Source: Candidatus Multivoradales bacterium (GTDB taxonomy: Bacteria > Acidobacteriota > Thermoanaerobaculia > Multivoradales > JAHEKO01). From it: a DNA stretch of 64,000 nt. The stretch spans positions 256,001-320,000 of the forward strand of contig CBDCVR010000014.1 in NCBI GenBank assembly GCA_965223155.1, written 5' to 3'. Under the pieces are notes generated by a model. The model had not been told where the DNA came from. It saw only the letters and a program-made list of their open reading frames with translations, and made no database searches. Positions 1 to 38,196 of this stretch are shown here, piece after piece (position 1 is the first letter of the stretch; each line of letters opens with the position of its first letter). A program made the translations under genes and the position numbers.

Positions 1-627
1 TCGCTCCTTCGTCCCTCGCCTGTCCCGTCTTCGGGGAAGACTCAGGCCGGCGGTCAGCAGAGCGGCTACCAGAAAGCAGGCCGCATCCACGACCAGCGTG
101 GCCGTAAGACCCGTCCAGAGCAAGAGCTCCGCGCCCAGAATCGGACCGACGATGAGAAGCAGGTTCGAACTGATCTGCTCGACGCCGTTGGCCCGTGGCA
201 GTTGTCCGGACTCCACCACGAGCGGGACCGAGGCCGCCTTGGCCGGTTGGAAGAACGCCGCCGCCACCGAATGCAGGGCCGCGGCCACGAAAATCACCGG
301 CAAGGTGGGCCAGGTGAGAATCGTCACCGCCAGAACCATCCGGGCCAGCGCCGAGCCCGCCAGGACCGCCCGCTTGCTCACCCGGTCCACGAGCACGCCG
401 GCGAAGGGCGCCGCCAGCACTCCGGGCAGAGCCTCGAGCAACACCAGGCCCGCCAGGACCGCCACCGAGTCCCGCTCGCGAAAAAGATAGAGCACCAGCG
501 CGACTCGGCTGATCTGGGTGCCGACGACCGAGAAGGCCTCGGCCAGCCACAGTCGGCGGAAGGAAGCGTTGGCGAGCACCTGCCGCCAGCCGCGATCGGC
601 CCAGGCCTCACTCGCGGACGGCGTCAC
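1..627 (-). CDS. MFS transporter (efflux-type), 3' part runs off the window edge
   Basis: Manual translation from GTG at 627 gives ...VLANASFRRLWLAEAFSVVGTQISRVALVLYLF...APFAGVLVDRVSKR (MFS motif A-like) with successive hydrophobic helices; no stop before position 1. Confidence 0.85.
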   Translation of the reverse strand, partial: MTPSASEAWADRGWRQVLANASFRRLWLAEAFSVVGTQISRVALVLYLFRERDSVAVLAGLVLLEALPGVLAAPFAGVLVDRVSKRAVLAGSALARMVLAVTILTWPTLPVIFVAAALHSVAAAFFQPAKAASVPLVVESGQLPRANGVEQISSNLLLIVGPILGAELLLWTGLTATLVVDAACFLVAALLTAGLSLPRRRDRRGTKER

Positions 628-660
628 GAGGAGCTCTCCCCGGCCCTCGGCCGCCCAAGA

Positions 661-700
661 GAAAACGACACTCGAGGGAGCAAGGCTCCCTCGAGTGTCG
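661..700 (-). terminator. Rho-independent terminator between the HEAT-repeat gene and the MFS gene
   Basis: Perfect 16-bp stem CGACACTCGAGGGAGC / GCTCCCTCGAGTGTCG with a 3-nt loop, followed by TTTT on the minus strand. Confidence 0.8.
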
Positions 701-742
701 GTGGGCGCGGGCGCTGCGACCCGGCCCCTCGGTCATTACCGG

Positions 743-1933
743 CTACCTCGGGTAGTCACGCACGTGCCTACCCGGCTCGTCCGCCACTCCGTCGAGATCG
801 GAGTCCACCTCGCCCAGCACGGTCGCGTGGGCCGGCAGGTAGTTGAGATCCACGACGCCGTCGCCGTCCCAATCCACCACCTTGCCCTTGAACCTGCCAT
901 TGACGAACCCGTTGGTGAGGGGTCCGACCACCGGATGGTGCAGGGTCGAGAGGATCGAGTTGCCCGGGAAGAAGAACTCGCCGCCGCTGTTCTCGATGCG
1001 TTCGAGATTGACGAACGACCAACCCTGGAACAGCCCACGCACGTATTCGATCGCCTTACGGCCGTCGACCTGCATGTCCTGATTCAGGAACCACTGTCCC
1101 TGACGGGCGAAGGGGACGCTGACGTTGTCGACCACGCCGGCCGAGGGGTCGTTGGCCTTGCCCGAAAGGAAGATCGGCCGATCGGTGACGGTCTCGAAGT
1201 AGAAGTTCCCCTGCAGAGGATCGCTGAGCTCGGTGAAGCCCTTGAAGAGGAACGCCTCGTAGTGCTCGGAGCCGTCGTCGTTGAGTCCGGTCAGGGTCTT
1301 GGCGACCACGACCTCGTCGTCCCGGGTGGCCATGTTGTTGCAGGCCAGGGCCTGGCCGAAGACGCGCTTGAGCATCTGCGGACTGATCAGCAGATGGCCC
1401 CACATGTCGTTCGAGGGACCCAGCTTGATGTACAGGTTGCAGGTGATGTGGAGATAGATGGTCTGATCGAAGGTGCGGCCCTCGTGGTAGCGGAACGCCC
1501 GCTGCCGGCGAAAGTCTTCCTCCACCCAACCCATCTCCCAACCGAAGACGTTGGCCCACTCGCGTACGCGATGGTCGCCATCGGTGACGAGCTCACGGCC
1601 GATCGCGGCGGTCTCCGAGCTGGGCAGCCACTCCAGGGCCCACAGCAGGTTGACCCGCAGGTCCGTGTCCTCGTCTTCGAACAGCGCCCGGCGAATCTCG
1701 GGTAGGGCCTTGACGCCGTTGCGCGCCAGATACTGGTATAGGGCGTGCTCCCGCATGGCGGGATCCGGCAGCGTGCGCCCGTCGCGGATCAACTGCTCGT
1801 CCGACCGACTCTCCAGGCTGAGAGCCGCTTGGGCGATCATGTCCTCGAATCGAGTCGTCGGATCTCCGAAGCGGACGTCCTCGATTTGCTTGAAGGCAAT
1901 CTCGTTCTTCGCCACTCCGACAGTCTTCAGCAT
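743..1933 (-). CDS. HEAT-repeat-containing protein of unknown function with C-terminal DxDxDG motifs
   Basis: ATG at 1933 with GAGGA RBS. N-terminal HEAT-like helices (DPAMREHAL, DTDLRVNLLWAL, DHRVREWA), then a beta-rich body and DWDGDG / DSDLDG near the C-terminus. Confidence 0.7.
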   Translation of the reverse strand: MLKTVGVAKNEIAFKQIEDVRFGDPTTRFEDMIAQAALSLESRSDEQLIRDGRTLPDPAMREHALYQYLARNGVKALPEIRRALFEDEDTDLRVNLLWALEWLPSSETAAIGRELVTDGDHRVREWANVFGWEMGWVEEDFRRQRAFRYHEGRTFDQTIYLHITCNLYIKLGPSNDMWGHLLISPQMLKRVFGQALACNNMATRDDEVVVAKTLTGLNDDGSEHYEAFLFKGFTELSDPLQGNFYFETVTDRPIFLSGKANDPSAGVVDNVSVPFARQGQWFLNQDMQVDGRKAIEYVRGLFQGWSFVNLERIENSGGEFFFPGNSILSTLHHPVVGPLTNGFVNGRFKGKVVDWDGDGVVDLNYLPAHATVLGEVDSDLDGVADEPGRHVRDYPR

Positions 1934-2186
1934 AGTGTCCTCACTTTCGTTGAGTTCGGGCGCTCCCGGTGCCGGTCCCTGTTGCCGTGGCATCGACGAC
2001 GCTCTTCACAAGCGGCGCCGAGAGCTTTCGTACATCTAGTTCGATTTCCATCCAGGCCGCGGTCGCCGTCTGAATCCTGCCGGGTCTCAGCCTGTCCAAA
2101 CAACGATCGCAACTGTCCAAGCGCCTCTCGGTGCTCTCCTTTCTCGAGGTAACGCCGTATAGATATCGTCGGCTCCGCTCTGGGGG

Positions 2187-2203
2187 CTTCTCCTGTATTG
2201 CCA
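2187..2203 (-). promoter_or_regulatory. Cluster motif copy (TGGCAATACAGGAGAAG), putative AraC-type operator
   Basis: Matches the 17-bp motif seen upstream of five other cluster genes; lies in the intergenic region upstream of the HEAT gene. Confidence 0.6.
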
Positions 2204-5853: not shown

Positions 5854-6864
5854 TCAGCCCGGCAAGGGTCCGAGAATCACCTTGTCGTAGGCGAAGTTCG
5901 TCAGGGGCGACCCGGTCTCCCAGTCCACCTTGGTCGGATCGCAGAAGCAGAGCACCGCGACGTCGTGCGCCACGAAGTACTTCCCGCCAGGCGCCGTGAG
6001 ACCTCGGAAGAAGCCTCCTTCCCGACCCGCGATCGGCTGCCCATGCACGAACTTGGCCGGCGAGCCCCGATACTGGCCGACCATGTCCCAGCGAACGGCC
6101 TGCGCTTCGTCGCCCTTCAGGGTCACAGGGACCGTGGCGATGGTGTAGAGCGCCGTGTTCCGGAGCGCGCCATCCAGCTCGGCGGTGAAGAAGTCCCGGC
6201 GGCGCAGGTTCGCATGGGCGTCGAAGATCGACTTCGCGCCCATTTCGACGCGGGTGTGCCGCGCCAAGGCGGCCAGGCCGTCGCGGGGCTCGTCGGACAC
6301 CTTGGTGAAGACATCCTTGAAGGCTCCGAATTCCTCGCCTCCGCAATAGAAATAGGTCAGGCTGAGCGGCTCCTCCTCGGAGTCCCCAAGCGCCTTGGCG
6401 AAGCGGCGCGAAAAGGCGTTGGCGGCGATGCCCGGGCCGCGTTCTTCGAACGCTAGCCCCTCCCGAGCCTCGAGGTCGAAGACCAGGAGGTAGTGCGCGG
6501 GATCGGCTTGTCCCTTGCGCTGGGTCCTCTGCCCCACCCAGACGCCGTGCAAGGTCTCGTTGAAGGCTCCGGCGTCGGCCGCGTCTGCGGCCTTGGCGAC
6601 GTGCCGCGGCTCGTCACAGATCGAAAAATCCGTATCGAGCAAATACTTCGCCGTCTCTTCGGGACTCGCGGGATGCCGGGCCTCGGGAGCCGCGCCGCGC
6701 CGCGCCTCCGGGGGCGGCACTTCGGCCGAGTCCTCGGCCGGCGGGGCGCAAGCGGCGCCCAGCAGCGCGGCCAAGGCCATTCCCAGGACGGCCCCGCGGA
6801 CGATTCCGGCTCGTTGGTTTCGGAAAGATTGCTTCGAGAGTCCCGATTCGTTCAACTTACGCAC
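5854..6864 (-). CDS. Lipoprotein of unknown function (paralog A)
   Basis: GTG at 6864 after GGAGG; lipobox LLGAAC. Shares TLHGVWxG, YxxCGxE, FxKVS, PIxGxExGxFxG and KVxxGPL with 14863-15822. Confidence 0.75.
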   Translation of the reverse strand: MRKLNESGLSKQSFRNQRAGIVRGAVLGMALAALLGAACAPPAEDSAEVPPPEARRGAAPEARHPASPEETAKYLLDTDFSICDEPRHVAKAADAADAGAFNETLHGVWVGQRTQRKGQADPAHYLLVFDLEAREGLAFEERGPGIAANAFSRRFAKALGDSEEEPLSLTYFYCGGEEFGAFKDVFTKVSDEPRDGLAALARHTRVEMGAKSIFDAHANLRRRDFFTAELDGALRNTALYTIATVPVTLKGDEAQAVRWDMVGQYRGSPAKFVHGQPIAGREGGFFRGLTAPGGKYFVAHDVAVLCFCDPTKVDWETGSPLTNFAYDKVILGPLPG

Positions 6865-6960
6865 GCGACCTCCGTTTCTCGTCTCTAGGTTTGAACCCGA
6901 TCGATCTCTGCCTACTTTGATCTGGCTCCATCCAGGCTCCATCCGGGCTCAGCCGTGGGG

Positions 6961-7264: not shown

Positions 7265-7891
7265 ATGACAAAGAGAGTTTCCAAAGCTGGCAGCGTCGCT
7301 TCGGCAGTCGCGATCTTGGTGGCCTGTTTCGTCGCCGCGCCGGTCGCCGCCGAACCGGATCCCGTGCAGTGGGACGCGCAGGCATCGAAGGAAGTCGCCG
7401 CAGCTCTGCACGAGATGCACGAAGTCTGGAACACCGGCGACATCGCCGCGCTCAAGGAGCTCCTGATCGGGGACGACGTGCTCGTCACCTTCGAGCTGGA
7501 TCCCGAGACGCACGAGCCGATCCGTTTGACTTCGAAGCAGGACCTCGACCGGTTCGTGGACGGCATCGTCACCGATCTGGACAAAGACCAGGCGGTGAGC
7601 CTGCTCGGCGACCCAGTGCTCAACTGCCGGGCCACGGCCAATTTCGGGGTCTGCACCGAGGAGTGCTCGGTGTCGGTCAAGACGCCGGACGGCGTCGAAG
7701 AACGGCATCGCCTCTGGTCCACCGCAACCGCCGTCAAGCAGGACGGCGGCTGGAAGTGGATCCAGTGGCACATGTCGATCGGTGGACCGGTCGAGCGCTA
7801 CAAGAACGGCGAGCGCGTCGCTTCCGTAGGCCGGTACACGTTTCTACCCGCAGGAGCTCGACTCGGCGCACCGAACTCGAAGGTCGAGTAG
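7265..7891 (+). CDS. Exported SnoaL/NTF2-fold protein
   Basis: AAGGAG RBS, signal peptide (APVAA), WNTGDIAALKELL helix and C-terminal DGGWKWIQWHMS, typical of SnoaL_3/NTF2 folds. Confidence 0.75.
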   Translation: MTKRVSKAGSVASAVAILVACFVAAPVAAEPDPVQWDAQASKEVAAALHEMHEVWNTGDIAALKELLIGDDVLVTFELDPETHEPIRLTSKQDLDRFVDGIVTDLDKDQAVSLLGDPVLNCRATANFGVCTEECSVSVKTPDGVEERHRLWSTATAVKQDGGWKWIQWHMSIGGPVERYKNGERVASVGRYTFLPAGARLGAPNSKVE

Positions 7892-7940: not shown

Positions 7941-9884
7941 ATGAGCGATCGATCCAACAAGCCCACCGCAACCCGACCCGGTCCACCGAGCGGCTACCGT
8001 GCCTTCGTACGATCCTCGATGGTGATCGCGGCTACGGTGGCGCTTTCGACGCTGGCCTGCACCAACGCCGGCAACGGCAGCGGAAACGGCGACCAGGGCG
8101 CCGGCGCCACCGCCGCGGCTACCGGCGGCAGCACTTCCGCAAGCCTGGCGGGGGGCACCGGCAAGGGACCGTGGTTCCGAACCCCTAACGGTTTCGCGGT
8201 CGAAGCCAACGGCCACATCGTAGTCGCCGATCTCGGCCGGCGAGCGATCCTCCGGGTCGATCCCGCCAACGGCAACCGGTCGATCGTCTCGGACGAGACC
8301 ACCGGCAGCGGACCCGAGCTCCAATCCCCGCTCAATATCGCGGTCGAAGCCAGCGGCACGCTTGCGGTTACCGACTCCGGCTTGCAGGCGGTCGTTCGAA
8401 TCGACCCTGCCTCGGGCGACCGAACCGTCGTCTCGGACTCCAGCCAGGGCAGCGGCCCCGCCTTTCAGTCGCCTCTCAACATCGACGTCGAGCCAAGCGG
8501 CTCACTCGTGGTGACCGACTTCGGACTCCTGTCGGTGGTTCGGGTGGATTCCTCGAGCGGCGATCGCACGATCGTGTCCGGCCCTCACCAGGGCTCGGGC
8601 GTCAAGTTCTCGGCTCCGCGCGGCATCGCCGTCGACGCCAGCGGCGGCTTGGCGGTCGCCGACTTCGGCCTGGACGCCGTCCTGCGAGTGGATCCCACCA
8701 GCGGCGACCGCACCGTCGTCTCTGACGCCTCGACCGGAAGTGGTCCGGCCCTTGACGGTCCCGCCGGCATCGACGTCACCTCCGGCGGCGACTTCCTGGT
8801 CTCGGATCTCGCCACCAAGGCCCTGATCCAAGTGGACGCGAGCACCGGCGATCGCACCACGATCTCGGACGCCAACCACGGCAGTGGGTCCGACTTCCTC
8901 TCGCCGATGGGTGTCGCGACCGCCGCCTCGATGCCTCTGGTCCTGGATTCGGGACTCGAGGCCATCGTCCAGGTAGACCCCAGCAGCGGCAACCGCGCCA
9001 TCGTGTCCCAGAGTCACGAGACCGGCGATCCGGCCTTCGCCATTCCCGTTGGGATCGCGGTCGAAGGCAGTGGGGATCTGGTGGTCGCGGACGCCGGGCT
9101 CAACGCCGTCATTCGCGTCGACGCGGCCACCGGCGATCGTTCGGTGGTCTCCGACGCCAGCCGCGGCTCGGGCTTGCCGCTCGAGGGCCCCGACGGCATC
9201 GCGGTCGAAGCCAGCGGCAGCTTGATCCTCGTCGAGGGCGGCGCCGGCCAGGTGGCGGTTGTCCGTATCGATCCCCAAAGCGGTGACCGCACGGTCGTCT
9301 CCGACTCCTCGACCGGTTCGGGCCCGGATCTCGAGACTCCCTCGGGCATCGCGGTCGACGGCAGCGGCCAGCTCCTCGTCGTCGACGACGGCCTGGACGC
9401 AGTCGTCCAAGTGGATCCCGCGACCGGCGACCGTTCGATCGTCTCCGACCAGAGCGTCGGCACCGGACCCGACTTCGAGTCCCCGCCGAATCTTGACGTC
9501 GAGTCGGCCGGATCGCTCGTGGTCACGGACTCCGCCCGTATCGCGGTGTTCCGCGTGGACGTCGCCTCCGGGGATCGATCGATCCTGTCCGATTCTTCGA
9601 CGGGGTCGGGACCCGATTTTCAGTCGCCCCTGGATCTCGCCATCGAGAGCTCGGGAGGTATCTTGCTGACCGACTTCGGGCGCAAAGCCGTGCTACGGGT
9701 AGACCCCACCAGCGGCGACCGGTCGATCGTGTCCGACGCAAGCACGGGCAGCGGCCCTAACTTCCAGGCCCCGCTGGATCTAGCCGTCGAGGCGAGCGGC
9801 GACATCGTGGTCGTCGACGCCGGACTCGAGGCTGTCGTCCGAGTCGAGGCGTCGACGGGAGATCGGGCGATCCTCAGTCAGTAG
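7941..9884 (+). CDS. Lipoprotein with 12 NHL-like repeats (two 6-bladed beta-propellers)
   Basis: Lipobox LSTLAC; 12 repeats of ~48 aa (SGPxFxSPxGIAVEASGxLxVxDxGLxAVxRVDPxSGDRxIVSD). Confidence 0.85.
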   Translation: MSDRSNKPTATRPGPPSGYRAFVRSSMVIAATVALSTLACTNAGNGSGNGDQGAGATAAATGGSTSASLAGGTGKGPWFRTPNGFAVEANGHIVVADLGRRAILRVDPANGNRSIVSDETTGSGPELQSPLNIAVEASGTLAVTDSGLQAVVRIDPASGDRTVVSDSSQGSGPAFQSPLNIDVEPSGSLVVTDFGLLSVVRVDSSSGDRTIVSGPHQGSGVKFSAPRGIAVDASGGLAVADFGLDAVLRVDPTSGDRTVVSDASTGSGPALDGPAGIDVTSGGDFLVSDLATKALIQVDASTGDRTTISDANHGSGSDFLSPMGVATAASMPLVLDSGLEAIVQVDPSSGNRAIVSQSHETGDPAFAIPVGIAVEGSGDLVVADAGLNAVIRVDAATGDRSVVSDASRGSGLPLEGPDGIAVEASGSLILVEGGAGQVAVVRIDPQSGDRTVVSDSSTGSGPDLETPSGIAVDGSGQLLVVDDGLDAVVQVDPATGDRSIVSDQSVGTGPDFESPPNLDVESAGSLVVTDSARIAVFRVDVASGDRSILSDSSTGSGPDFQSPLDLAIESSGGILLTDFGRKAVLRVDPTSGDRSIVSDASTGSGPNFQAPLDLAVEASGDIVVVDAGLEAVVRVEASTGDRAILSQ

Positions 9885-9890: not shown

Positions 9891-10265
<375 letters not shown>

Positions 10266-25561: not shown

Positions 25562-26001
25562 GCCGCGACCCCATTCGCCTGGTACCGGACCAAGGCCCGG
25601 TGCAGCGACTCGGGGATTGGCGCCGGGACGTACTCGTCGCCGGCGCGGCGCATGACCACGACCTGCTGCTCTCCCCGGGCCACGAGCTCCTCGGCGCCGC
25701 CTTCGCGAGCCTTGCGCCGGTACTCGAAAGCGAGCGTGATCCGGTTCTGCACCATCTCCTTCAAGCTCATGCGTACCAGGACCTCGTCGAAAGCGACGAG
25801 CTCTGAGGCGTACTCACACGAACAGCGCGACGTCAGCAGGCCCAGATCTCGAGCCAGCTCATCGAGCACGTCGGGACAGTGGTCGCGCAAGAACATCTCC
25901 CGGCAGCGGCCCTGCCAGCTCAGGAAGTTCGAGTAGTACACGTTGCCGACCAGGTTGGTCTCCTGAAACCCCACCACATGGGAGTACTCGTAGTAGCGCA
26001 T
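25558..26001 (-). CDS. tebC: Enediyne hot-dog thioesterase (SgcE10/DynE7/CalE7 type)
   Basis: YYEYSHVVGFQETNLVGNVYY...WQGRCREMFL signature; 147 aa. Confidence 0.93.
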   Translation of the reverse strand: MRYYEYSHVVGFQETNLVGNVYYSNFLSWQGRCREMFLRDHCPDVLDELARDLGLLTSRCSCEYASELVAFDEVLVRMSLKEMVQNRITLAFEYRRKAREGGAEELVARGEQQVVVMRRAGDEYVPAPIPESLHRALVRYQANGVAA

Positions 26002-26057: not shown

Positions 26058-26954
26058 TCATCGGCCCGGTCCCCCACCAATCCGCCCGCTATCCCGTCCC
26101 GGGCTTGCTTCCGACCGCTTCGACGCCATGCGCCGCGCCAGCAGCAGCGGCAGCGCGAGCAGGATCGGTGGATCCGTGGGCAGCGACTCGCGCAGCACCA
26201 GATCGGTATCGCCGATCAGACGCCCACCGCTGACCACGACCGAGCGCTCAGTCGAGCCCGCCCGCAGCGCGTTTTCGTACAGCAGGTAGTCCCTGGGGTC
26301 CGAGGACCAGGAGAGGCCGAGTCCCAGGAGGTGGTACTCGCCATCGGGCAGCGTGGGCAGCCGGTAGGACCCCGGCCGGGTCACGAGGGCGCAGGCCTCG
26401 GGCTCGGTCTGAGGAACCGCTCCCTCGAAGAGGCCCACGAAAATCAACCCGTCAAAGCCGTCCGGGGCCTCGATCCGGCCGGCAGCGGGCCCTTCCGCCG
26501 CGAAGCCGCCGCCACGCGCCCGCCCTCTGCGCAAGCAGTCCACCGCCGCGCCCGCGTCCTGCCGGCTGAGCCGCCGGAAGTGGCTGGGAGCCAGTCCCAC
26601 CAGCTCGGCGAAGCGCCGGGTAAACGTGCCCAGGCTGCTGTAGCCGACCTCGAGCGACACGTCGGTGACGCTCATCTCCGACTCCAGCAAGAGACGCTTG
26701 GCGCTGGCCAGCCGCAACGCGGTCAGGAACCGGCACGGCGGCACACCGGTCACCTCCTTGAACACCCGATTCAGATGGAACGGGCTCATGATGGCGACGT
26801 CGGCCATCTGTTTCAGCGAGAACTCTTCGTCCAGGTTCTTCTCCATTTCGCCAACAAGGCGCTCGATCGCCGTGCGGTAGAAGGAGTCCGTCTCGGCGCG
26901 GTGCACCGGCGGCTGGGACGGAGTCGCGATCGCGGATTGGACCATTTCAGACAT
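26058..26954 (-). CDS. AraC-family regulator with N-terminal HTH pair and C-terminal extension
   Basis: MSPFHLNRVFKEVTGVPP and VGYSSLGTFTRRFAELVG; ATG at 26954 after GAGGGAG overlaps the pksE stop. Confidence 0.9.
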   Translation of the reverse strand: MSEMVQSAIATPSQPPVHRAETDSFYRTAIERLVGEMEKNLDEEFSLKQMADVAIMSPFHLNRVFKEVTGVPPCRFLTALRLASAKRLLLESEMSVTDVSLEVGYSSLGTFTRRFAELVGLAPSHFRRLSRQDAGAAVDCLRRGRARGGGFAAEGPAAGRIEAPDGFDGLIFVGLFEGAVPQTEPEACALVTRPGSYRLPTLPDGEYHLLGLGLSWSSDPRDYLLYENALRAGSTERSVVVSGGRLIGDTDLVLRESLPTDPPILLALPLLLARRMASKRSEASPGRDSGRIGGGPGR

Positions 26955-29900: not shown

Positions 29901-32829
29901 TCTCAGCGGGCAAGTCCAGCTCGCTCGCGACCAGACCTCGAACCAGCTCCAGGGAGCCGCGTCCGACCGAGGTCTCGGTCGGGAGTTGAGCCGGCCGCGG
30001 CGGCGGTTCCGACTCCGGCGCGGCCGGGCTTCGGCGGCGCGCCGCCCGCGGTCTCCGCGTTGCGGCACCGGCCGCCGCCTCGCAGGGACTCGGCAGAAAG
30101 ACCGGTTCCCTCTCGAAATCGAAGGGCTTGAAGAAGCGGCCCTCGAACAGCCCCTTGGTCCGGACCGGGGCGCCCAGGGTCCAGGCGGTAGCTACAGCCT
30201 CGAGCAGACCCAGGAGGGTGTCGGAGCCGGCATTGACGCTCACCGCTCGAGCGCTCCCGCAGGCCTCCGCCAGCCGGCTCAGGACGCTGCCCGGACCCAG
30301 CTCCAGCCAGAGATCGACGCCCTCCCGCTCCGCTCGCTCGATGGCCTGCTGGAAGCGCACCGGTGCCTCGAGCTGGCCGAGGAGCAGTCCTCTCGGAGAG
30401 CCATCAGCGGCGACCGTCTCCCCGGTCACCGTCGAGACCGCCGTTCGGGCCGGCGGACGCATCGCCTCATCCGCAAGCAACGCCTCCAGCGGACCGCGCA
30501 GGCTCGTCATCAGCGGCGAATGAAACGCGTCGGCAACTTCGAGCCGCGTGACGGTCCGATCCCGGCGCCGCGCTCGCTGCACCAGGCGATCGATCGCCGC
30601 CAAGGGCCCGGAAACCACCGTTTGGCTGGGTCCGTTGAACGCCGCCACGACAAGGTTCAGTCCCGCGATCAGCTCAGCGGCCTCGGCGGCCGGCGCCGAG
30701 ACACTCGCCATTCCGCCACGAGGCCCCTCTCGTTCGGCCATTATCCGACCGCGGGCGCGGGCGATCCGCAGAGCCCCCGCACGGTCGAAACAGCCTGCCC
30801 AGTGAAGCGCACAGAGCTCGCCCAAGCTGTGACCAACGGCGACGTCAGCGGCGAGCCCGAGCCGGTCCGCCAAGTCCAGGGCCGCTAGCGACCGTCCTAC
30901 GATCGCCGGTTGGATCTCCCCCGGTCCGCGCTCGGGCCGGCCCGCCTCGAGCCAACCGGCCAGCTCCGGGAACCGCCGGGCCCAGAGCCGGGAGCCTCGC
31001 GCCGCCAGCGATCCTTGCCCCGGGAACAGAAAACCGAGACGGGGCGCCCGGTCTCCGGCATCCCCGAGCCACCAGCCGCGGCCGTGCTCCAGGCGGTCCG
31101 CGGCTTCTTCCTCGGTTCGGGTCTCGAGCCGCGCCAGCATCCGGGTCAACCGCTTCACCAGCTCGCTCGGCCGTTCGGCGACCGCGGCGGCCCGCAAGGG
31201 GCCTCTTCCCGCAACGGTTCCCGCGCCGGCGGCGAGCTCGGCTGCCATGTCGGTCAGCTCGGCCTCCGAGCAGTGCGCCGCGGAGCGGCGCAGGACCGTC
31301 AGGCGATCTCGCAACTCTTCCCGAGACGTGGCGTCGACCAGGAAGAGCTCGGTTCCCTGGGGCGCAGTCCGGCACAAGCCATGACCGGCGCCGACACTCG
31401 CTCCGACGGACCGAACCGGAGCCTCGACGGTGACGTGAACGTTGATTCCGCCGAACCCCATCGAGCTCACCGAGGCTCGGCGCGCTTGTTCTTGGGGCCA
31501 GTCCTCGGCGGCGTCGAGCACGCGTAGCGCGGCGCTCCGGCCAGTCAGGAGCGGGTGCGGCTCCCGGCAGCCGGTCGTCGGCGGCAGGACGCCGTGTTCG
31601 AGGGCCGAAACCGCCTTGAGCAGACCAGCGGCCCCGGCCGCGGCCTTGGTGTGGCCGATATTCGCCTTCACGGATCCGAGAGCCGCGCCGAAGACCGGGC
31701 CGGCGGCCGACTGCCGCGCCGAACCCTCGCCGCGGGTCAGCTCGGACGACAGAGCCTCCAGCTCCACGGCATCGCCGACCGGCGTCCCGGTGCCGTGCCC
31801 CTCGAAATAGCCGACCGACTCCATGGAATAGCCGGCCATCTCGTAGGCCCTTCTGAGCGCCAGACGCTGTCCCGCGACCTCGGGCCGGGTAATCCCCCCC
31901 GAACCGTCCGAGGAGATGCCCCAGCCGCGCAACAGGGCTCGTATGGGCCGATCGGCGGCGCGGGCGTCGGACTCGCGCATCAGCACGAACATGCCGCAGC
32001 CCTCGCCCGGCAGGAAGCCGCGGGACTTGCGATCGTAGACCGCCATCTCGCCGGGACTCAGCGCTCCGAGCCGGGAAAAGCCCACCAGCTCGAAGGGATC
32101 GAGGCTCAAATCGACGCCGCCGGCGAGCGCCACGTCGAGCTGCCCGGCGACCAGGGCGTTGCAGGCGTTCGCGATACTCAACAAGGACGACGCGCAAGCT
32201 CCGTCCACTGTGTACCCGCCGCCGCCGAGGCCGAAGTGACCGCAGATACGGCCGGCGATCGTGTTGGCAAGCCCGCCGGCCAAGCTCTCGTCGGTCACCG
32301 GCGCGAAAGGCGCCTTGTAGGCTTCCTCCAGACGCTCCAGGAAACGCCGGCCGCGCTCCGTGGGCCAGCCCTCCTCGGCCAGGAGCCCGGCGACCGTGCG
32401 CTCCACGAACGGCCAACGCAACCTGAGACTGCTGGCGCGCGATTGGTCCCCGGTAAGTGAGTTCCCCACCACGACGCCAGTGGCCGCCCGCGGCAAGTCC
32501 TCCCCGGCCGGGAACCCGGCGTCGCCCAGCGCGTCGGCCGCCACCTCGAGCGCCAGCCAGTGGGCCATATCCGCCGATCGATAGGTCGCCAGGGGCACCC
32601 GGAACCGGGCGCGATCGAACTCGTACCCCTCCAAGACCGCGGCGCGCCGAACGTAGAGCGCGTCGCCATCGTCCGGGTCGGAGTTCCAGTAGTCCTCCAG
32701 GCGCAGACGGCTCGGGGGAATCGCGCGAAAGGCGCGCCGCTGGCTCAGGACGTTGCGCCACAGCTCCTCCGGACCACCGGCATCCGGATACCGGCACGCC
32801 ATGCCGACGATGGCGATCGCCGAGGTCAC
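26947..32829 (-). CDS. pksE: Iterative enediyne polyketide synthase (KS-AT-ACP-KR-DH-PPTase)
   Basis: KS DGACASS, EGHGTGT, NIGHTKAAAG; AT GHSLG, AFHS; ACP DLHLSSI; KR SGGGKGIA, YGLANEW; DH HVVLGAPLVP; PPTase GCDLE, WTALECLRK. GTG at 32829 overlaps the unbU stop. Confidence 0.95.
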   Translation of the reverse strand: MTSAIAIVGMACRYPDAGGPEELWRNVLSQRRAFRAIPPSRLRLEDYWNSDPDDGDALYVRRAAVLEGYEFDRARFRVPLATYRSADMAHWLALEVAADALGDAGFPAGEDLPRAATGVVVGNSLTGDQSRASSLRLRWPFVERTVAGLLAEEGWPTERGRRFLERLEEAYKAPFAPVTDESLAGGLANTIAGRICGHFGLGGGGYTVDGACASSLLSIANACNALVAGQLDVALAGGVDLSLDPFELVGFSRLGALSPGEMAVYDRKSRGFLPGEGCGMFVLMRESDARAADRPIRALLRGWGISSDGSGGITRPEVAGQRLALRRAYEMAGYSMESVGYFEGHGTGTPVGDAVELEALSSELTRGEGSARQSAAGPVFGAALGSVKANIGHTKAAAGAAGLLKAVSALEHGVLPPTTGCREPHPLLTGRSAALRVLDAAEDWPQEQARRASVSSMGFGGINVHVTVEAPVRSVGASVGAGHGLCRTAPQGTELFLVDATSREELRDRLTVLRRSAAHCSEAELTDMAAELAAGAGTVAGRGPLRAAAVAERPSELVKRLTRMLARLETRTEEEAADRLEHGRGWWLGDAGDRAPRLGFLFPGQGSLAARGSRLWARRFPELAGWLEAGRPERGPGEIQPAIVGRSLAALDLADRLGLAADVAVGHSLGELCALHWAGCFDRAGALRIARARGRIMAEREGPRGGMASVSAPAAEAAELIAGLNLVVAAFNGPSQTVVSGPLAAIDRLVQRARRRDRTVTRLEVADAFHSPLMTSLRGPLEALLADEAMRPPARTAVSTVTGETVAADGSPRGLLLGQLEAPVRFQQAIERAEREGVDLWLELGPGSVLSRLAEACGSARAVSVNAGSDTLLGLLEAVATAWTLGAPVRTKGLFEGRFFKPFDFEREPVFLPSPCEAAAGAATRRPRAARRRSPAAPESEPPPRPAQLPTETSVGRGSLELVRGLVASELDLPAETLAEDQRLLEDLHLSSIRVTQVAMRAARELGLGDLTLPTDLATFSIAELAGFLDEVGATGVADLESGATPAGVGSWVRPFVVAFEERPLPVRRPARGPESTARERGRWRVVAPPDTEFAGDLQRALAASGRGSGTAVYLPEGPDSESLGLLLQAVREVEASGDDRLLIVQHRTLAASFARSFHLETEPTATCVVEIPESAEGALDWIVAEARSAEGFVHARYDRSGNRRVPVLRLAKDGIVAKTPVLGRDDVVVVSGGGKGIAAECALELGRRYGAALALLGRSDPGDDTELAANLDRLRSLGARFRYLPVDVCDPAGVTRALATAREDLGEITALLHGAGSNRPGLLSTLDLGAFAQALAPKVEGLRNLLAALDPERLRLVVAFGSLIARTGLAGESHYGLANEWMAACLEAFGRDHPACRTLTIDWSIWAGAGMGERLGTVESLARQGISPIGVDDGVRILNELLEGRCEVGGRCVVAGRMGDLPTLERETGRLPLRRFLEFPRLHYPGVELVVDAELAVETDPYLADHVVLGAPLVPAVLGLEAICQVAMAIQGADRPPVLEAVRFERALQVPEDGPLKVRIAGLRTAPEIIEVVVRSAATGFDVDHFRARCRFDRPEPAPQAPACTEEFLALDPGTDLYGGCLFQTGRFQRVTGYRQLSAHHSRAAIGADGAVAWFGRYLPAGLVLGDPAARDAAIHSVQASIPHATVLPVGVDRIETGSLPAEESWEVEATELRRDGDSLFYQLEIVGADGLVRERWHGLELRIAAPRAPETSWPAATLRPYLERRLEDLLSAPDLAVSVAPTESLDREGAKERALERLLGSGETLRYRPDGRPQLLLSDEGGGGGGRGGISIAHADGVTLAIRAADEVGCDLEPVVSRADEDWAEILSWERLDLAGRIADLCHEDLATARTRVWTALECLRKVGLPATAPLTLVRSEDDGWLALRSGTRALASYATSLRGGPAPLTFTFVHEEGAIDV

Positions 32830-33740
32830 GGCGCCGACCTTCCAGGTAGCGCCGCCGGAGCGCCTTCGGCCACGGCCGGCGCCTGGACCAGGGCCGCCAC
32901 CGATAGCCACAGCCCGCGTCCGCAGCAGACGATCGTCAAGGCGAAGAAGAAGCCGAACACCACATGGCTAGTCATGAGGAGGCCGTAGACCGCCGCCACG
33001 CTGACGCCGAACGCCACCTGGCCCGCCCTGCCTCGTGGCGTGGTCGCGGGGTCGCTCACCATGTAGAAGGAAAAGAGCAGAAAGGCGACCCCGGTAGCCG
33101 GCACCAGACCGGCCGTCCAGGGCATGTCAAACAGGGCTGCCCGCAACAGGGCCTGCACCGCAAAGCCGGAGCCCCACGCCAAGATGAGCACGATCTTCTT
33201 CGTGTACCGGGCATTGAGCAGCGAGCCAGAGACCACGATCACGGCCGGGAGGATCCAGTCGCCGGCGCCACTCAGGTTCTCGGTGAACATGTACGGTGGC
33301 GCGATACCGACCCACGGAAACAGCAGCAGCGTGGCGGTGATGCCGAAGTTCGAAGGATTCAGAAAGTGCCGCTTGGAACCGTTCCAGCCGACGCGCAGCA
33401 CCGCCTTGGAACCGATTGCGACCGCCGAGGCGAAGGCGATCGGCGCCAGTCGCGAGTTTGCGTAGAGCAGCATCGAGACCGCCAACCCCGTGATGTGCGC
33501 CGAGAGCAGGAAATCGACCATGCGCACGACGCCGCCGGCGAAACGGGGCTGGCGGCCCTCGCTCCAGGCACGCGACCACTCGATCAGGAGCTCGAGCAGG
33601 TAGGCGGTTCCTATGCCGACCAGCGGCTGCGCCCAGGACTGTTCGAATCCGAAGACCGTATGGCCGAGGACGTTGAACAGGGTGATAGCGATGGCAAACC
33701 GCCGCAACGCGGCCAACCGGGGATCCGCCCAACCGCTCAT
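32826..33740 (-). CDS. unbU: Enediyne biosynthesis membrane protein E5
   Basis: RLAALRRFAIAIT, GHTVFGFEQS, HFLNPSNFGI, IAPPYMFTE and YMVSDPATTP. Confidence 0.92.
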   Translation of the reverse strand: MSGWADPRLAALRRFAIAITLFNVLGHTVFGFEQSWAQPLVGIGTAYLLELLIEWSRAWSEGRQPRFAGGVVRMVDFLLSAHITGLAVSMLLYANSRLAPIAFASAVAIGSKAVLRVGWNGSKRHFLNPSNFGITATLLLFPWVGIAPPYMFTENLSGAGDWILPAVIVVSGSLLNARYTKKIVLILAWGSGFAVQALLRAALFDMPWTAGLVPATGVAFLLFSFYMVSDPATTPRGRAGQVAFGVSVAAVYGLLMTSHVVFGFFFALTIVCCGRGLWLSVAALVQAPAVAEGAPAALPGRSAP

Positions 33741-35719
33741 CCGCGCACCGCCGCTTCCACCAGAGCCGTGCGGCACAGACGCAATCGATGCCTGCCCGGC
33801 GGCAAGCGCAGCCGCTGCGACCGAGGCACGCCGCGCCGGTCGCGCCAAGCCAGCTCGACCTGGACGTTCGGTCTCCCCTGGGAGTCGCCGGCCGGCGGGC
33901 CGAGACCGAAGTGAAGCGCCGGGCTGCGCACACCGGAGTGTCCGCTGCCACCGTCTACCTGGCCGACCAAGACCTTGCCACCCTCCCGGAGCACCCGGGC
34001 GGTAGCGCCCACGGCCGCTCGGCTCGGCGCCTCCGACTCGCAACCGCCCTCCGCAGGACCGGCGGGCAGACGCAGGTCCAGAACGAGCGATCGGCCCGGG
34101 CCGGTCTGGACGTTGCGGTACAGGTAGGAAGGCTCCCATTGGTTGGCGACCGCGAGGTCCAGATCGCCGTCCCCGTCCACGTCTCCGGTCGCGATCCCAC
34201 GGGTGACTTGCTCGCCCCCGAGCCCCACCGCCGGCGCCACGTCCCAGAAGCGCCCGTCGGCCGCCGCCACGAAGAATCCGTTGGCTTCGTGGCCGCTCAG
34301 GTCGTCGCCCTCGCGCAGCCGCGGCCAGCTTCCGGGAAAGCGCAGCATCCAGTCGTTGCCCATCGCCAGCTCATGCAGCTCCGGCCAGCGGTCTACCGAG
34401 CCGCGCACGAAGCCGGTGGCCTGAACCGCTTCCAGCCGCCCGTCGTTGTCGAAGTCTCCGAACCGCGCTTCCCAGGCCCACGAGCTGCGCGACAGGCCCA
34501 ACTCCTCCGAGGCGTCCCGGTACGGAGCGATTCCTCGGGCAAGCCGTTCCGCGAAGCCTCCAGCCCGGCTCAGATAGAGAAAATGACTCTCTTCCAGGGC
34601 GTACTCGGCCGCGATGTTGCTGACGTAGATGTCGAAGAGGCCATCCCCGTTGACGTCCCCGAAGTCGACGCCCATCCCCTTGAACGAATCCCGCCCCAGG
34701 ATCTTGGAGGCCGGAGTGGTCAGGCCGCGCCGTCCTTCCACGAGAGCGAATTTGGGCCGGCCCGGAACCGAGCGATTGTGGAGCAACCGGTCGGGGCCGA
34801 AATCGTTGGCAAAGTAGAGTTCCGGAAGCAAGTCTCCGTCCAGGTCAGCGGCGCCGAGCGCCAGGGTCCAAGCGCGGCCGACGCGACCCGCGAAGGCGTC
34901 CGGCACCTCTTCGAACCTGGGCAGCGAACCCGTCTCGGTGGGCGGCGACCAGAGCAGGAGCCGGTTGCCGCCGCCGTTGGCGGCTCGCGACATCGACTCC
35001 TGCATCCGCGCCGGCTTGCCGCCTTCCCCATCCAGGATTCCCGAGCCATCCTGGAAGTAGTTGCCGAACACCAGATCAGGATGCCCGTCGCCGTCAACGT
35101 CGGCCCGCGCCGCGGCGTTCGTGTACCAGCGCTCGCCATCGGCGGTCAGGGGCATGGCTCGGAAGCCGGCCGCCGCCAGGCCGGCCGAGACCGGCCGCGC
35201 GAAGTAGGCCACCGGCCCGCGGCCCCAGAAGTAGACGAGCAGGTCCAGCCGGCCGTCTTCGTCCAGGTCGCCCGGCAGGCAGCCCATTGGCGCCGTCGTC
35301 TCGGAGAGCGGGCCAGAGCGTTGGGCCACGCCCGGGAGCTCCCGAAGATCCAGTTCGAACGGTTCGTATCGATGCGCGGTCCCGGGCGCCGGCAGAACCG
35401 AGACCGAGTCCGTCCTGGGATCCACCAGACACACATCGTTGTCAAGGCCGTCGCCGTCCAGGTCCGCCAGCGCCACGGCGGCTCCCACCGAGGAAATCCA
35501 GGCCGCGATGTGCTCGAGGTCCGGATGCACCGTCCGAACCGTCCGGGATGGCACCGTCCATCCATCGCCGCTGTCGCCGGCCCGCAAGGGCAGCCGCTCG
35601 AACCGGAAACGCTCCGCCAACGCCGAGCGCTCGGTCTGGGCCAGGCGCGGAAGCCGAACGAAGCCCGCCAGTATCGTGGGCACCAGGATCGCAACGGCGA
35701 CGGGAAGGATTCGCCTCAC
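33737..35719 (-). CDS. unbV: Enediyne biosynthesis protein E4 (CRTAC1 / ASPIC-UnbV, FG-GAP repeats)
   Basis: IAAWISSVGAAVALADLDGDG, ANDFGPDRLLHN, DSFKGMG, WPELHELA and QVDGGSGHSG; GTG at 35719 after AAGGAG. Confidence 0.93.
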   Translation of the reverse strand: MRRILPVAVAILVPTILAGFVRLPRLAQTERSALAERFRFERLPLRAGDSGDGWTVPSRTVRTVHPDLEHIAAWISSVGAAVALADLDGDGLDNDVCLVDPRTDSVSVLPAPGTAHRYEPFELDLRELPGVAQRSGPLSETTAPMGCLPGDLDEDGRLDLLVYFWGRGPVAYFARPVSAGLAAAGFRAMPLTADGERWYTNAAARADVDGDGHPDLVFGNYFQDGSGILDGEGGKPARMQESMSRAANGGGNRLLLWSPPTETGSLPRFEEVPDAFAGRVGRAWTLALGAADLDGDLLPELYFANDFGPDRLLHNRSVPGRPKFALVEGRRGLTTPASKILGRDSFKGMGVDFGDVNGDGLFDIYVSNIAAEYALEESHFLYLSRAGGFAERLARGIAPYRDASEELGLSRSSWAWEARFGDFDNDGRLEAVQATGFVRGSVDRWPELHELAMGNDWMLRFPGSWPRLREGDDLSGHEANGFFVAAADGRFWDVAPAVGLGGEQVTRGIATGDVDGDGDLDLAVANQWEPSYLYRNVQTGPGRSLVLDLRLPAGPAEGGCESEAPSRAAVGATARVLREGGKVLVGQVDGGSGHSGVRSPALHFGLGPPAGDSQGRPNVQVELAWRDRRGVPRSQRLRLPPGRHRLRLCRTALVEAAVRG

Positions 35720-35750
35720 CGCGACGGCTCCTTCGGATTCCGCTCGAAGC

Positions 35751-36701
35751 TCATAGCGAAGCCCACCTGACCTCAGGCGCTGCACCGCCCAGACCGGCGC
35801 GCAGCCGCGCCCGCCAGCGCTCGTACCCGGACGGGTCGAGCTCGTCCCGCGGACGGCTCCGCTCGGCCCACTCGGCGGCGCCTGTCCCATCCAGGCCGAC
35901 CAGTGCCTGGCACGCGCTCTCGGTCGCCCACGGAATTCGTCCAGCCTGCCGCCGCGCGGCGGCCGCGAATGCCGATCCTTGAGCCAGGTGAGCGCGGAAT
36001 TGGGCCGCGCACTCGACGAGCACGTCCAGCGCCTCCGGACCGGCGCCTCCGGCGTAGGTCGCCGCCAGCCCGACTCCCGACCAGAGGTCGCCCCGGCGAG
36101 GGAACGCGAACCGATCGATCGTGGCGCTGATGCCCTCGGCATCGGCGCAGTTCGAGAACCAGAGCGACCGGCCCAGTCCCTGATCGAAGGCACGCAGTCC
36201 GTACCCGGTCAGCGAGCGCGGTCTGAGCTGGCGCCCGACCGCCGGTTCAGTTCGGAAATACCCGTGGTGAAATCCGTAGCCATCGAAGGCGAGCCAACGC
36301 AGCATCGGGCGGAGGGTGCGTACGAGCTTGCCCTCGGCCCACCGCACCCGGGCGATCGCCCAGCCAACCCCGACATGGATCAAGTACGCGTAGCGGGGAC
36401 CGAAGCGATCCAGGAACGCCGGTAGGCGGTGAACTCCGCGCGGATCCAAGGCGTCCAGAAGAGCACACGCCATGGCTGCGCCTTCGACCGCAAAGCCAGC
36501 GCTCTCGACATCTTCTTCGAGCTCGCCCAACTCGAGACGTGCTCCGCCGCCAGCCGCCAGGGCGAGGTGGTATCCGGACAGAAAGGCCCGCCCAACGCCC
36601 TCGAGGTGCCCGCGCACAGCCGGATCTCCCATCGCAAACCCGCGCTCTCGAAAAAGCACCGCAGAAGGAGCGATGCGCAGAATTCGGAGCAGTAGCTTCA
36701 C
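35751..36701 (-). CDS. unbL: Enediyne biosynthesis protein E3 (DUF1702)
   Basis: GFAVEGAAM, YLIHVGVGWA, WLAFDGYGFH, DQGLGRSLWF and DLWSGVGLAATYAGG. Confidence 0.92.
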   Translation of the reverse strand: MKLLLRILRIAPSAVLFRERGFAMGDPAVRGHLEGVGRAFLSGYHLALAAGGGARLELGELEEDVESAGFAVEGAAMACALLDALDPRGVHRLPAFLDRFGPRYAYLIHVGVGWAIARVRWAEGKLVRTLRPMLRWLAFDGYGFHHGYFRTEPAVGRQLRPRSLTGYGLRAFDQGLGRSLWFSNCADAEGISATIDRFAFPRRGDLWSGVGLAATYAGGAGPEALDVLVECAAQFRAHLAQGSAFAAAARRQAGRIPWATESACQALVGLDGTGAAEWAERSRPRDELDPSGYERWRARLRAGLGGAAPEVRWASL

Positions 36702-37037
36702 GACGACGTCCAGAGTGTTCCCATCCGAGTCGGTACCCCGTCGTCAGGAACCGCGAGTTGCAAGCGTCCAACACAGGCAGCGAGCCGATCCCTTCGACCT
36801 CGGATCCGACCTTTGGTTTGCTTGATGCCGTCAGTCTAGTGACGCTGCGCGATCCTGGCTCGTCGCCATTTTCGAATTCCAAGTCACTTCTTCGACAGAA
36901 TGCGACAAATTTTTCGATCCCGCTCGGCTGCGTCAGCTCGAGGGGAGGTCGAGGGCCGGTTGAGAGTAGGTCCGGCACCGTGCCGGTCGAGAGACTCCGA
37001 CCCAGCGGGTTGGCTACACCGGGTGTGGGAACCGGCC

Positions 37038-37403
37038 CTAGCTCGGCCGGTGACGGTTCTTGAATGAACGAGGCGTCTGGCCAGTGACGCGCTTGAAGGC
37101 GCGCTCGAACGTCCGAAGATCCCGATAGCCCACCGAATAGGCAAGCTCCGTAATGGTCGTATTGCGCTCCCGGATTCTCTGCTTGGCTCGCTCCACGCGC
37201 AAATGGTTGACCCATTGATTGAAAGGAACCCCGGTCTTGGCGCGAAAGAAGCTCGAGAAGTAGGCGGGGGACAAGCCCGCCACCTCGGCAACCTGGGTCA
37301 GCCCGATGTTCCGGTCCAGATTTCGCTCGACGTACTGCTGAACGCGGCTCAACCGTCTGTAGTAGCGAAACGCAGCACGATTGATCCGGCTCTCGTCGAA
37401 CAT
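37038..37403 (-). CDS. Small AraC-family regulator (DNA-binding domain only)
   Basis: AGLSPAYFSSFFRAKTG and VGYRDLRTFERAFKRVTGQTP; no effector domain (alternative TTG start at 37424). Confidence 0.9.
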   Translation of the reverse strand: MFDESRINRAAFRYYRRLSRVQQYVERNLDRNIGLTQVAEVAGLSPAYFSSFFRAKTGVPFNQWVNHLRVERAKQRIRERNTTITELAYSVGYRDLRTFERAFKRVTGQTPRSFKNRHRPS

Positions 37404-37506
37404 CCGGCCCGACACTCCCTCCAAGAAGACTGATCTTTTGAATTGTTACAGGCAAGCTTACACCATTCCGCGCTCGCGCCAACTCCTGATCTCGCACCTT
37501 GAGGAT

Positions 37507-37523
37507 CGGCAAGGCGGGAGAAG
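37507..37523 (+). promoter_or_regulatory. Cluster motif copy (CGGCAAGGCGGGAGAAG) with -10-like TACGGT 21 nt downstream
   Basis: Consensus match upstream of the 37627 gene. Confidence 0.65.
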
Positions 37524-37626
37524 CCAGCTCTCTTGCTTCGGCGCTACGGTGGAAGCACCTCACCGCCTAGGAACCTAGCCCGCACTCGGCTGGCCTTTCG
37601 AACACCGACGAAGAAGGAGTCTGACC

Positions 37627-38196
37627 ATGTTTCCAAAACCCGGCATCGACCTCGTCCAGCACGAACTTCGAGTTGACCTCTTTGGCGACCGCGACGGTAA
37701 GGAGGAACGCCTCGAGACGCTCGTGTTCGAAGGGCGCATGCTCCTCGAACGGGGAGGCGCCAGCCGCGACAAGGAAGGGACGCGACGCATCGACTTCCGG
37801 GTCCGCCGCTGGGAGGCGACCGCCTGGAGCGACACCCTCGACGCAGTCGTCACCTATGCCACCGGCGACAACGAGCAGCCGCTCAGCTATATCGTGTCGG
37901 AAGGCGCCGAGTCCGACTATCCCGCGACCCTCACGTTCAACGTCGTCTTCGACGCCTATCTCGACGGAGAGCTGGTCTTCCGGGCTCACGAGGGCCGGCC
38001 GGAAGGCCACGGCTTTCTCGAGATCCCGCCCAGCGGCTACCGCAAGTCGAGCCCGACGATCACCAGTTTCGAGGACACCCTGATCGAGGCCAAGCATCCG
38101 AAGCTGGGCGTCCTGCGCTTCAAGCCGCGCGACTGCAACGACCAGAACAGCGTCACCCTGAAGAGCTTCCCGGACGACAGAGAACGCGCGATCTAG
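37627..38196 (+). CDS. Beta-rich cytoplasmic protein of unknown function
   Basis: AAGGAG RBS, strong GC3 codon bias, 189 aa; divergent from the small AraC gene. Confidence 0.75.
   Translation: MFPKPGIDLVQHELRVDLFGDRDGKEERLETLVFEGRMLLERGGASRDKEGTRRIDFRVRRWEATAWSDTLDAVVTYATGDNEQPLSYIVSEGAESDYPATLTFNVVFDAYLDGELVFRAHEGRPEGHGFLEIPPSGYRKSSPTITSFEDTLIEAKHPKLGVLRFKPRDCNDQNSVTLKSFPDDRERAI

Follow-up and report, generated by a model that had tools for sequence, protein, structure and literature searches.

An enediyne-type polyketide synthase operon and its neighboring accessory module in an acidobacterial genome: a case for two independent units

We analyzed a stretch of 64,000 nucleotides (the window) from the genome of Candidatus Multivoradales bacterium (contig CBDCVR010000014.1, positions 256,001 to 320,000), which carries an enediyne-type polyketide synthase (PKS) operon next to an array of accessory genes. 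Coordinates without another label are window positions; L numbers label loci or contigs and G numbers label genomes. A preliminary description of the window had seen the accessory genes as an unprecedented-looking set of the enediyne cassette. A dedicated set of this kind was not borne out as stated, because the set recurs as a syntenic module of its own on an unrelated contig. Instead, we favor the explanation, with a probability of roughly 0.6, that the window holds two back-to-back biosynthetic units which are independent of each other and whose adjacency reflects co-location in the accessory genome rather than dedicated enediyne tailoring. Unit A (23.6-38.2 kb, minus strand) is a canonical operon comprising E3, E4, E5, the PKS gene pksE and genes for an AraC-family regulator, a thioesterase (TE), a cytochrome P450 and an exported SnoaL-like protein. 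Unit B (5.9-23.5 kb) would be a separate module built around a FeeM-type N-acyl amino acid synthase.

Occurrence of the accessory genes at other loci

The evidence for a separate module comes from a metagenome contig (JADMIO013059802.1, hereafter L120; 57% GC) that was found with the diheme cytochrome of Unit B as probe and of whose 97 kb we covered 21 kb, about 10 kb either side. Nine Unit B families are syntenic on L120, namely the SnoaL_3, NHL, diheme cytochrome, vanillyl-alcohol oxidase (VAO), methyltransferase, FeeM, halogenase, lipoprotein and glyoxalase-fold families. PksE, TE, E3-E5 and P450 genes were not found within 10 kb on either side of this module. As nine families are syntenic there without PksE genes within 10 kb, we regard the accessory set as a conserved module in its own right. 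The FeeM-family gene of L120 (Pfam 1.8e-28) is 26% identical to that of the window, and the lipoprotein family is represented by two copies in the window and by three on L120 (16664-21342). L120 additionally encodes a B12-binding radical S-adenosylmethionine (SAM) enzyme and a second methyltransferase.

The converse comparison used other PksE loci. A scan of one genome per prokaryote species yielded at least 563 PksE-encoding stretches, and the neighborhoods (±10 kb) of the best 80, all from named genomes, were examined. Homologues of the FeeM, amidase, diheme, VAO, methyltransferase, lipoprotein, NHL and glyoxalase genes and of both SnoaL genes were found in none of these 80 loci; the halogenase had one weak match (25%) and a planctomycete locus (L046) gave partial PSCyt and DUF1501 matches. 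Unit B genes were likewise absent from the PksE regions of six relatives, which we followed for about ±40 kb where the contig allowed. When every open reading frame (ORF) of six PksE loci was searched in reverse against the window, the matches were confined to the core set, a HEAT-repeat gene and a gene for a 189-residue protein. The preliminary description had named PKS loci of relatives lacking the accessory genes as a sign of chance juxtaposition, and such loci are what we found in the six relatives and the 80 named genomes, the weak halogenase-like match apart.

The diheme family, judged by its homologues, is more at home in Planctomycetota, where 24 of 401 genomes encode a full-length homologue (about 40% identity). 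In the host phylum the family was detected in 13 of 401 genomes, the host's own included, and all other matches are weak or partial. None of 12 planctomycete diheme loci carried another of the nine families shared with L120, and one of them gave a weak (30%) DUF1501 match.

Gene content and distribution of the two units

With a GC content of 63-72%, the window contains many spurious long ORFs, and genes were therefore called by third-position GC (GC3) combined with family searches. The preliminary description had reported five minimal enediyne genes plus a P450 gene, intact and largely coupled, and Pfam matches, matches to CalE7 and DynE7 and stop/start overlaps confirm this: the six genes lie in one tightly coupled minus-strand operon at 23.6-36.7 kb. 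According to excerpts of PMC10760148, the enediyne core derives from PKSE, its thioesterase, E3, E4 and E5. E3 (UnbL-type; 35751-36701) is a DUF1702 protein (PF08012, E = 3.1e-88) that is single copy in the host genome and whose homologues adjoin PksE in 66 of the 80 named loci and in five of the six relatives. The FG-GAP/ASPIC protein E4 (UnbV-type; 33737-35719) matches Pfam FG-GAP_3, FG-GAP and UnbV_ASPIC, the last with 31.4 bits against a cut-off of 23.4, shares 43-56% identity with E4-position genes of other loci and is present in 63 of the 80; we placed its start at GTG 35719, directly after an AAGGAG motif. For the membrane protein E5 (UnbU-type; 32826-33740), Pfam gives a weak NQR2_RnfD match under the cut-off, and the assignment rests on 50-65% identity to E5-position genes, present in 64 of the 80 loci.

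PksE (26947-32829) is an iterative enediyne-type PKS of 1960 residues with Pfam matches to the ketosynthase (KS), acyltransferase (AT), PP-binding, KR and DH domains. Its AT region matches DynE8 at 1.4e-48, and the protein is 44-50% identical to the 80 named PksE proteins, that of Streptomyces globisporus included. The Cys and His residues and the residues of what we take to be the GHSxG, acyl carrier protein (ACP) Ser, KR and DH motifs are invariant in seven aligned homologues. The C-terminal 150 residues are also conserved across seven homologues, and Pfam gives no phosphopantetheinyl transferase match there. PksE is followed by an AraC-family regulator (26058-26954; Pfam HTH_18 and HTH_AraC), homologues of which occur in 50 of the 80 loci, mostly after the TE. 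Then come an E10-type hotdog TE (25558-26001), matching CalE7 at 5.3e-44, the 'ACP-polyene thioesterase' 4i4j at 1.6e-41 and DynE7 at 7e-36 and having homologues in 77 of the 80 loci, and a cytochrome P450 (24101-25561; Pfam p450, 1.4e-64) with homologues of 33-44% identity in 38 of the 80, many of them directly after the TE. The final gene encodes a SnoaL/DUF4440-like protein (23572-24114; Pfam DUF4440 and SnoaL_3) that appears to be exported, since its N-terminus resembles a signal peptide. Translational coupling is seen at several junctions: the start codons of E5 (ATG) and PksE (GTG) overlap the stop codons of E4 and E5, respectively, the end of PksE overlaps the start of the AraC gene, and overlaps of 4 and 14 nt join TE to P450 and P450 to the SnoaL-like gene, respectively. 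By analogy with actinomycete systems, PksE would phosphopantetheinylate its own ACP and build an ACP-bound conjugated polyene from malonyl units; the CalE7-type TE would release this polyene, and E3, E4, E5 and the P450 would take it towards a polyyne or enediyne-type core.

Another candidate for E3, a minus-strand ORF of 438 codons at 36247-37563, was rejected as a gene. Its GC3 is 0.53 compared to about 0.8 for real genes of this region, its translation is rich in Arg, Gly and Pro, and none of 8000 scored candidates matched at E 0.001. The real E3 is the gene at 35751-36701. Next to it lie a second, short AraC-type helix-turn-helix protein (37038-37424, minus strand; Pfam HTH_18, 4.5e-22; GC3 0.77) and, on the plus strand, the 189-residue protein (37627-38196), which has no Pfam match and is possibly linked to the cassette: a homologue of 42% identity is encoded at 22802-23416 of L039, a PksE locus of Pyrinomonadaceae that also shares the P450. 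A promoter and terminator scan gave nothing that exceeded shuffled controls. Beyond the far side of Unit B, the HEAT-repeat protein (743-1993, minus strand) is a further candidate for linkage to the cassette. It has homologues of 45% identity (E = 1.8e-99) in the Blastocatellia locus L043, directly after the AraC gene (16672-17775), and of 30% identity in the Microseira wollei locus L037 (19746-20756), and may thus be a recurrent but rare companion of such cassettes (2 of 80 loci). The same Blastocatellia locus harbors an extra ORF after the TE (13724-15349), which is similar to residues 1067-1616 of PksE (39%), where the KR and DH domains lie.

The cassette is intact and divergent, but gene clusters of its kind are known and widespread, and its non-actinomycete host is not unusual. 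The best 80 of the at least 563 PksE loci derive from Actinomycetota (49), Acidobacteriota (16), Planctomycetota (5), Cyanobacteriota (3) and Pseudomonadota (2), with one each from Poribacteria, Bacillota, Chloroflexota, Zixiibacteriota and Bacteroidota; their gene order is mostly E3-E4-E5-PksE-TE. A PksE search of 5.8 billion protein clusters returned at least 4153 matches at E ≤ 1e-100, many of them under the JGI name 'enediyne polyketide synthase'. Enediyne-type KS domains were already reported from many non-actinomycete phyla, and the excerpts of that source describe enediyne compounds from Actinobacteria and ascidian extracts only and no product from non-actinomycete cassettes (PMC10308959). 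For actinobacteria, 659 enediyne clusters in 93 families are given in excerpts of PMC10760148.

In a FastTree phylogeny of 87 KS-AT regions, the 49 actinomycete PksE proteins sampled all group in one clade (support 100), whereas the window PksE branches outside it and forms the longest terminal branch (0.8 versus a median of 0.24). The tree, built with FastTree only, gives it no fixed position among Gloeobacterales, Bryobacteraceae and Angelobacter sequences, and the best non-self identity over KS-AT among the matches listed is 56%. The new branch of enediyne/polyyne chemistry in a diderm lineage that the preliminary description proposed is supported in part only: PksE is divergent, but a host outside the actinomycetes is nothing uncommon. 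The PksE proteins of the six relatives cluster with two Acidobacteria sequences in the same tree. The PksE of the congener G002 is 46-48% identical to that of the window and sits on another branch, so the genus did not simply inherit one copy. According to the part of PMC5181780 drawn on here, E2 marks 9-membered and R3 marks 10-membered enediyne types. The window contains one DUF1702 gene, compared to two adjacent ones in many actinomycete loci, the second of which is presumably E2.

Unit B lies mostly on the plus strand, with several genes coupled, and Pfam matches agree with the FeeM-like, VAO-type, halogenase, diheme cytochrome and lipoprotein genes of the preliminary description. At its center is the FeeM-type N-acyl amino acid synthase (21322-22155; PF21926, 109 bits against a cut-off of 27), whose predicted protein fits both the FeeM fold (structure 2g0b, 1.1e-13) and the family signature. 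It is preceded by an amidase-signature enzyme (19977-21266; Pfam Amidase, 2.1e-75), which was not seen on L120, and followed by an exported, RoxA-like diheme cytochrome c of 459 residues (22165-23544; Pfam RoxA-like_Cyt-c), which has two CxxCH motifs and a signal peptide and is 61% identical to its L120 counterpart. The flavin-dependent halogenase-like enzyme (10415-12130; 53% in L120) scores 54.7 bits for Pfam Trp_halogenase against a cut-off of 21. Its WxWxIP-type motif NWVWAIP and a conserved Lys (LPKYGLTF), presumably the catalytic one under the motif definitions that we assume for these enzymes, are kept in the L120 orthologue; the best NCBIfam matches, all under their cut-offs, also include monooxygenases such as QhpG. 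A SAM-dependent methyltransferase (12202-13068; Pfam Methyltransf_25, _31 and _11; 52% in L120) adjoins a VAO/p-cresol methylhydroxylase (PCMH)-type flavoprotein (13068-14672; Pfam FAD_binding_4; 50% in L120). Among solved structures in the PDB, the latter matches the p-cresol methylhydroxylase flavoprotein (8e-44) as well as eugenol and vanillyl-alcohol oxidases, which places it in the 4-phenol-oxidizing subfamily (E between 1e-31 and 1e-53); a signal peptide was not detected.

The remaining genes of Unit B encode several exported or lipid-anchored proteins. A beta-barrel lipoprotein (14863-15822, plus strand) with a lipobox belongs to a rare family of 47 representatives among 1.84 billion proteins, in which a single Cys is invariant and the C-terminal motif 'KVVIGPL' is conserved, and is 42-51% identical to the three L120 copies. 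Its AlphaFold model is a closed beta-barrel with helices (pLDDT 88.7). A Foldseek search of this model against solved structures found no relative at E ≤ 0.001, and in a wide VIA search the top matches were generic beta-barrels, with Z no higher than 5.9. The second copy in the window (5854-6942, minus strand), also with a lipobox, is a paralogue of 23% identity placed in the same family by alignment; its true start may lie further downstream. An exported SnoaL_3 protein (7265-7891, plus strand; 47% in L120) and an NHL-repeat lipoprotein (7941-9884, plus strand; lipobox-like N-terminus; 50% in L120) precede a small protein with a glyoxalase/bleomycin-resistance fold (9891-10265, minus strand; Pfam Glyoxalase; 67% in L120), for which no signal peptide was noted. 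A protein of this last kind might act as an enediyne-sequestering resistance protein; the structure search gave a lead only, with bleomycin-binding proteins as best matches at about E = 1e-3 next to general glyoxalase-fold proteins. Two further plus-strand genes were identified by Pfam and not seen on L120. They encode a PSCyt1/PSCyt2/PSD1 protein (15819-18269), the GTG of which overlaps the stop of the preceding lipoprotein gene, and a DUF1501 protein (18259-19779). The pair is single copy in the host genome and looks like a foreign insert in Unit B.

Unit B probably makes a modified N-acyl amino acid lipid, judging from its gene content. Because the FeeM homologue, the 4-phenol-oxidizing VAO, the halogenase motifs and the amidase beside FeeM fit together, we envisage a tailored N-acyl aromatic amino acid that would be formed from ordinary acyl-ACP and would be halogenated, methylated or oxidized. 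The preliminary description had also recognized no sugar, non-ribosomal peptide synthetase, epoxide hydrolase or anthraquinone-type genes, and indeed none had a Pfam match among the ORFs scanned in the first 38 kb.

Relationship between the units

Several observations weigh against the independence of the two units, and a number of them would suit a hybrid pathway. In such a pathway, the FeeM-type enzyme would take the chain from the PksE ACP, or a released and re-activated acid, and join it to an amino acid, and the halogenase, methyltransferase, VAO and amidase would tailor or process the conjugate. The stop of the diheme cytochrome gene lies 27 nt from the last gene of the PKS operon, and the two convergent units share one stretch that congeners lack, so that they may have arrived together. 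Since the HEAT gene is seen with the cassette elsewhere, Unit B is bracketed on both sides by cassette-associated genes, and the PKS operon ends in an exported SnoaL-like gene that is unique to this locus. No carrier protein or acyl-activating gene was found among the Pfam matches in Unit B, whereas PksE carries an ACP, and FeeM reportedly uses ACP-bound acyl donors, to go by the title of a paper. The module on L120 is moreover the one other occurrence of Unit B, with 21 kb of that contig covered, and a PksE cassette may lie more than 10 kb from it; the FeeM genes of the two are only 26% identical, and the amidase and the PSCyt/DUF1501 pair are not in L120. Finally, the VAO protein shows no signal peptide and the diheme protein is exported, so the two are unlikely to be direct redox partners. 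Nevertheless, we consider the hybrid pathway unlikely. The L120 module has no PksE genes within 10 kb, and none of the 86 other PksE loci is accompanied by FeeM, VAO, methyltransferase, diheme, lipoprotein, NHL or glyoxalase genes, with one weak halogenase-like match among them. As the units are convergent they cannot be co-transcribed, the cassette retains a releasing thioesterase of its own, and comparison of the SnoaL-like genes between the units revealed no significant relationship (E = 0.12). We are similarly doubtful about the product that would follow, in which the FeeM-type enzyme would have attached a polyene or polyyne chain from PksE through an amide bond to an aromatic amino acid, the latter then being halogenated, methylated and oxidized. 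If real, this hybrid lipid would represent a new lipid class, and no earlier product would have been defined for an enediyne-type PKS from outside the actinomycetes.

Independence of the units could also mean that Unit B is not biosynthetic at all and stands beside the PKS operon by chance. It would then serve the uptake or breakdown of phenolics at the periplasm or envelope, by means of the VAO/PCMH-type oxidase, c-type cytochromes, the NHL protein and lipoproteins. In line with this idea, one of the solved structures nearest to the VAO protein is that of the catabolic p-cresol methylhydroxylase, whose annotation reads dehydrogenase flavoprotein subunit, much of Unit B encodes exported proteins, and the PSCyt/DUF1501 pair has no known biosynthetic role. 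The VAO protein shows no signal peptide, which speaks against it, as does the presence of FeeM, a motif-bearing halogenase and a methyltransferase in one co-directional, partly coupled array both in the window and on L120. The B12-binding radical SAM enzyme and the second methyltransferase of L120 are, furthermore, typical tailoring genes, and we regard a role in phenolics use as improbable. Two independent biosynthetic units therefore remain our preferred explanation.

Host, genomic setting and known systems

The window is part of a 1.33-Mb contig in a 4.0-Mb genome that is 98.7% complete and has a GC content of 66.5%. As the preliminary description had proposed, the host is a diderm, with a BamA score of 490 bits (cut-off 297), and not an actinomycete. 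Acidobacteriota is well supported as the host phylum. A planctomycete host, suggested by the PSCyt/PSD1/DUF1501 genes, was rejected. The marks that we take to be typical of planctomycetes are many PSCyt/PSD1/DUF1501 paralogues and the planctomycete variant of the EUB338 site. PSD1 is single copy in the host and found in 2 of 41 genomes of its order, the host included, and the 16S rRNA matches standard EUB338 with 0 mismatches compared to 3 for EUB338-II and 5 for PLA46. It also matches the Acidobacteria probe without mismatch, the sequences of all four probes being the ones we presume them to have. Compared with solved structures, the host RpoB scores best against proteobacterial enzymes, a ranking that holds only for the enzymes with a structure.

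The cluster region is part of the accessory genome. At the DNA level, 4.2-38 kb has hardly any counterpart in four congeners, and protein searches in five relatives revealed no homologue of the lipoprotein and weak partial matches to the VAO protein in two of the five; genome G005 enters the counts for relatives and for PSD1 as one that gave no specific match. The GC content of the region (0.69-0.705) is at the upper end of the genome's range and still inside it. The cluster does not visibly extend past the left edge of the window, as the preliminary description had thought it might, because the adjoining 20 kb on that side contain genes for a phosphate ABC transporter, a transglycosylase, an ABC1 kinase and the like. 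Also left of the window, at about 248173-250023 of the contig (L119 12173-14023), is a gene in which a carbon-nitrogen hydrolase domain is fused to a diheme cytochrome c peroxidase (CCP_MauG) domain.

On the right of the cluster, the GC content is lower (0.62-0.65) from about 39 kb to the end of the window at 64 kb and on to about 89 kb beyond it. This part includes a RepA_C-like gene region (45201-46190), the first ~490 bases of which (45171-45659) are multicopy in G002 and G003 at 74-84% DNA identity, followed by an IS110-family transposase (47554-48615). Genes for narK-like transporters and a narGHI nitrate reductase (52148-64000) are 89-93% identical to G002 at the DNA level, compared to about 70-80% for other genes common to the window and G002. 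The codon make-up of this stretch is odd (first-position GC 0.56-0.59, GC3 0.82-0.88), and its similarity to G002 may reflect recent exchange within the genus.

The locus thus adds one more intact and compact non-actinomycete cassette, with an unusually divergent PksE, in a nearly complete acidobacterial genome. Of greater use is the finding that the accessory set forms a conserved module of its own, a small candidate for new N-acyl amino acid chemistry, and a caution that not every neighbor of a PKS belongs to its cluster. Literature searches on enediynes with Planctomycetes, Acidobacteria gene clusters or N-acyl amino acids did not reveal a description of this arrangement, and full-text searches listed no description of a FeeM/halogenase/VAO/methyltransferase/diheme/lipoprotein module.

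Among characterized systems, the Streptomyces globisporus locus L055, which we take to be the C-1027 (sgc) cluster, represents the actinomycete cassette. It shares the E3-E4-E5-PksE order with the window, and its proteins are 35-37% (E3), 43% (E4), 50% (E5), 46% (PksE), 38% (P450), 39% (AraC) and 50% (TE) identical to their counterparts; beyond these, no homologue of any L055 gene within ±10 kb is present in the window. The window cassette differs from the actinomycete one by its diderm host, the placement of PksE outside the actinomycete clade, an AraC gene between PksE and TE and a single DUF1702 gene in place of the two found in many actinomycete loci. The Pyrinomonadaceae locus L039 and other non-actinomycete loci share the order E3-E4-E5-PksE-TE-AraC, and L039 additionally shares the P450 (44%) and the 189-residue protein (42%). 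None of these uncharacterized loci contains Unit B, and the identity of their PksE proteins to that of the window over KS-AT is no higher than the above 56% among the matches listed.

Unit B can be compared with two other kinds of system. Its flavoprotein (13068-14672) fits the 4-phenol-oxidizing subfamily of the p-cresol methylhydroxylase/vanillyl-alcohol oxidase family. In contrast to PCMH, however, the cytochrome is a 459-residue, exported, RoxA-like diheme protein and the flavoprotein shows no signal peptide, so a PCMH-like flavocytochrome complex is not supported. With the fee cluster from environmental DNA and the stieleriacine cluster, Unit B has in common a FeeM-family synthase together with tailoring enzymes. 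Excerpts of PMC7293339 describe the proposed cluster for stieleriacine, an N-acyl tyrosine of Stieleria maiorica, as comprising N-acyl amino acid synthases, a methyltransferase and an oxidoreductase. Compared with these clusters by description only, Unit B adds a halogenase, a VAO/PCMH flavoprotein, a diheme cytochrome, an NHL protein and a rare lipoprotein family.

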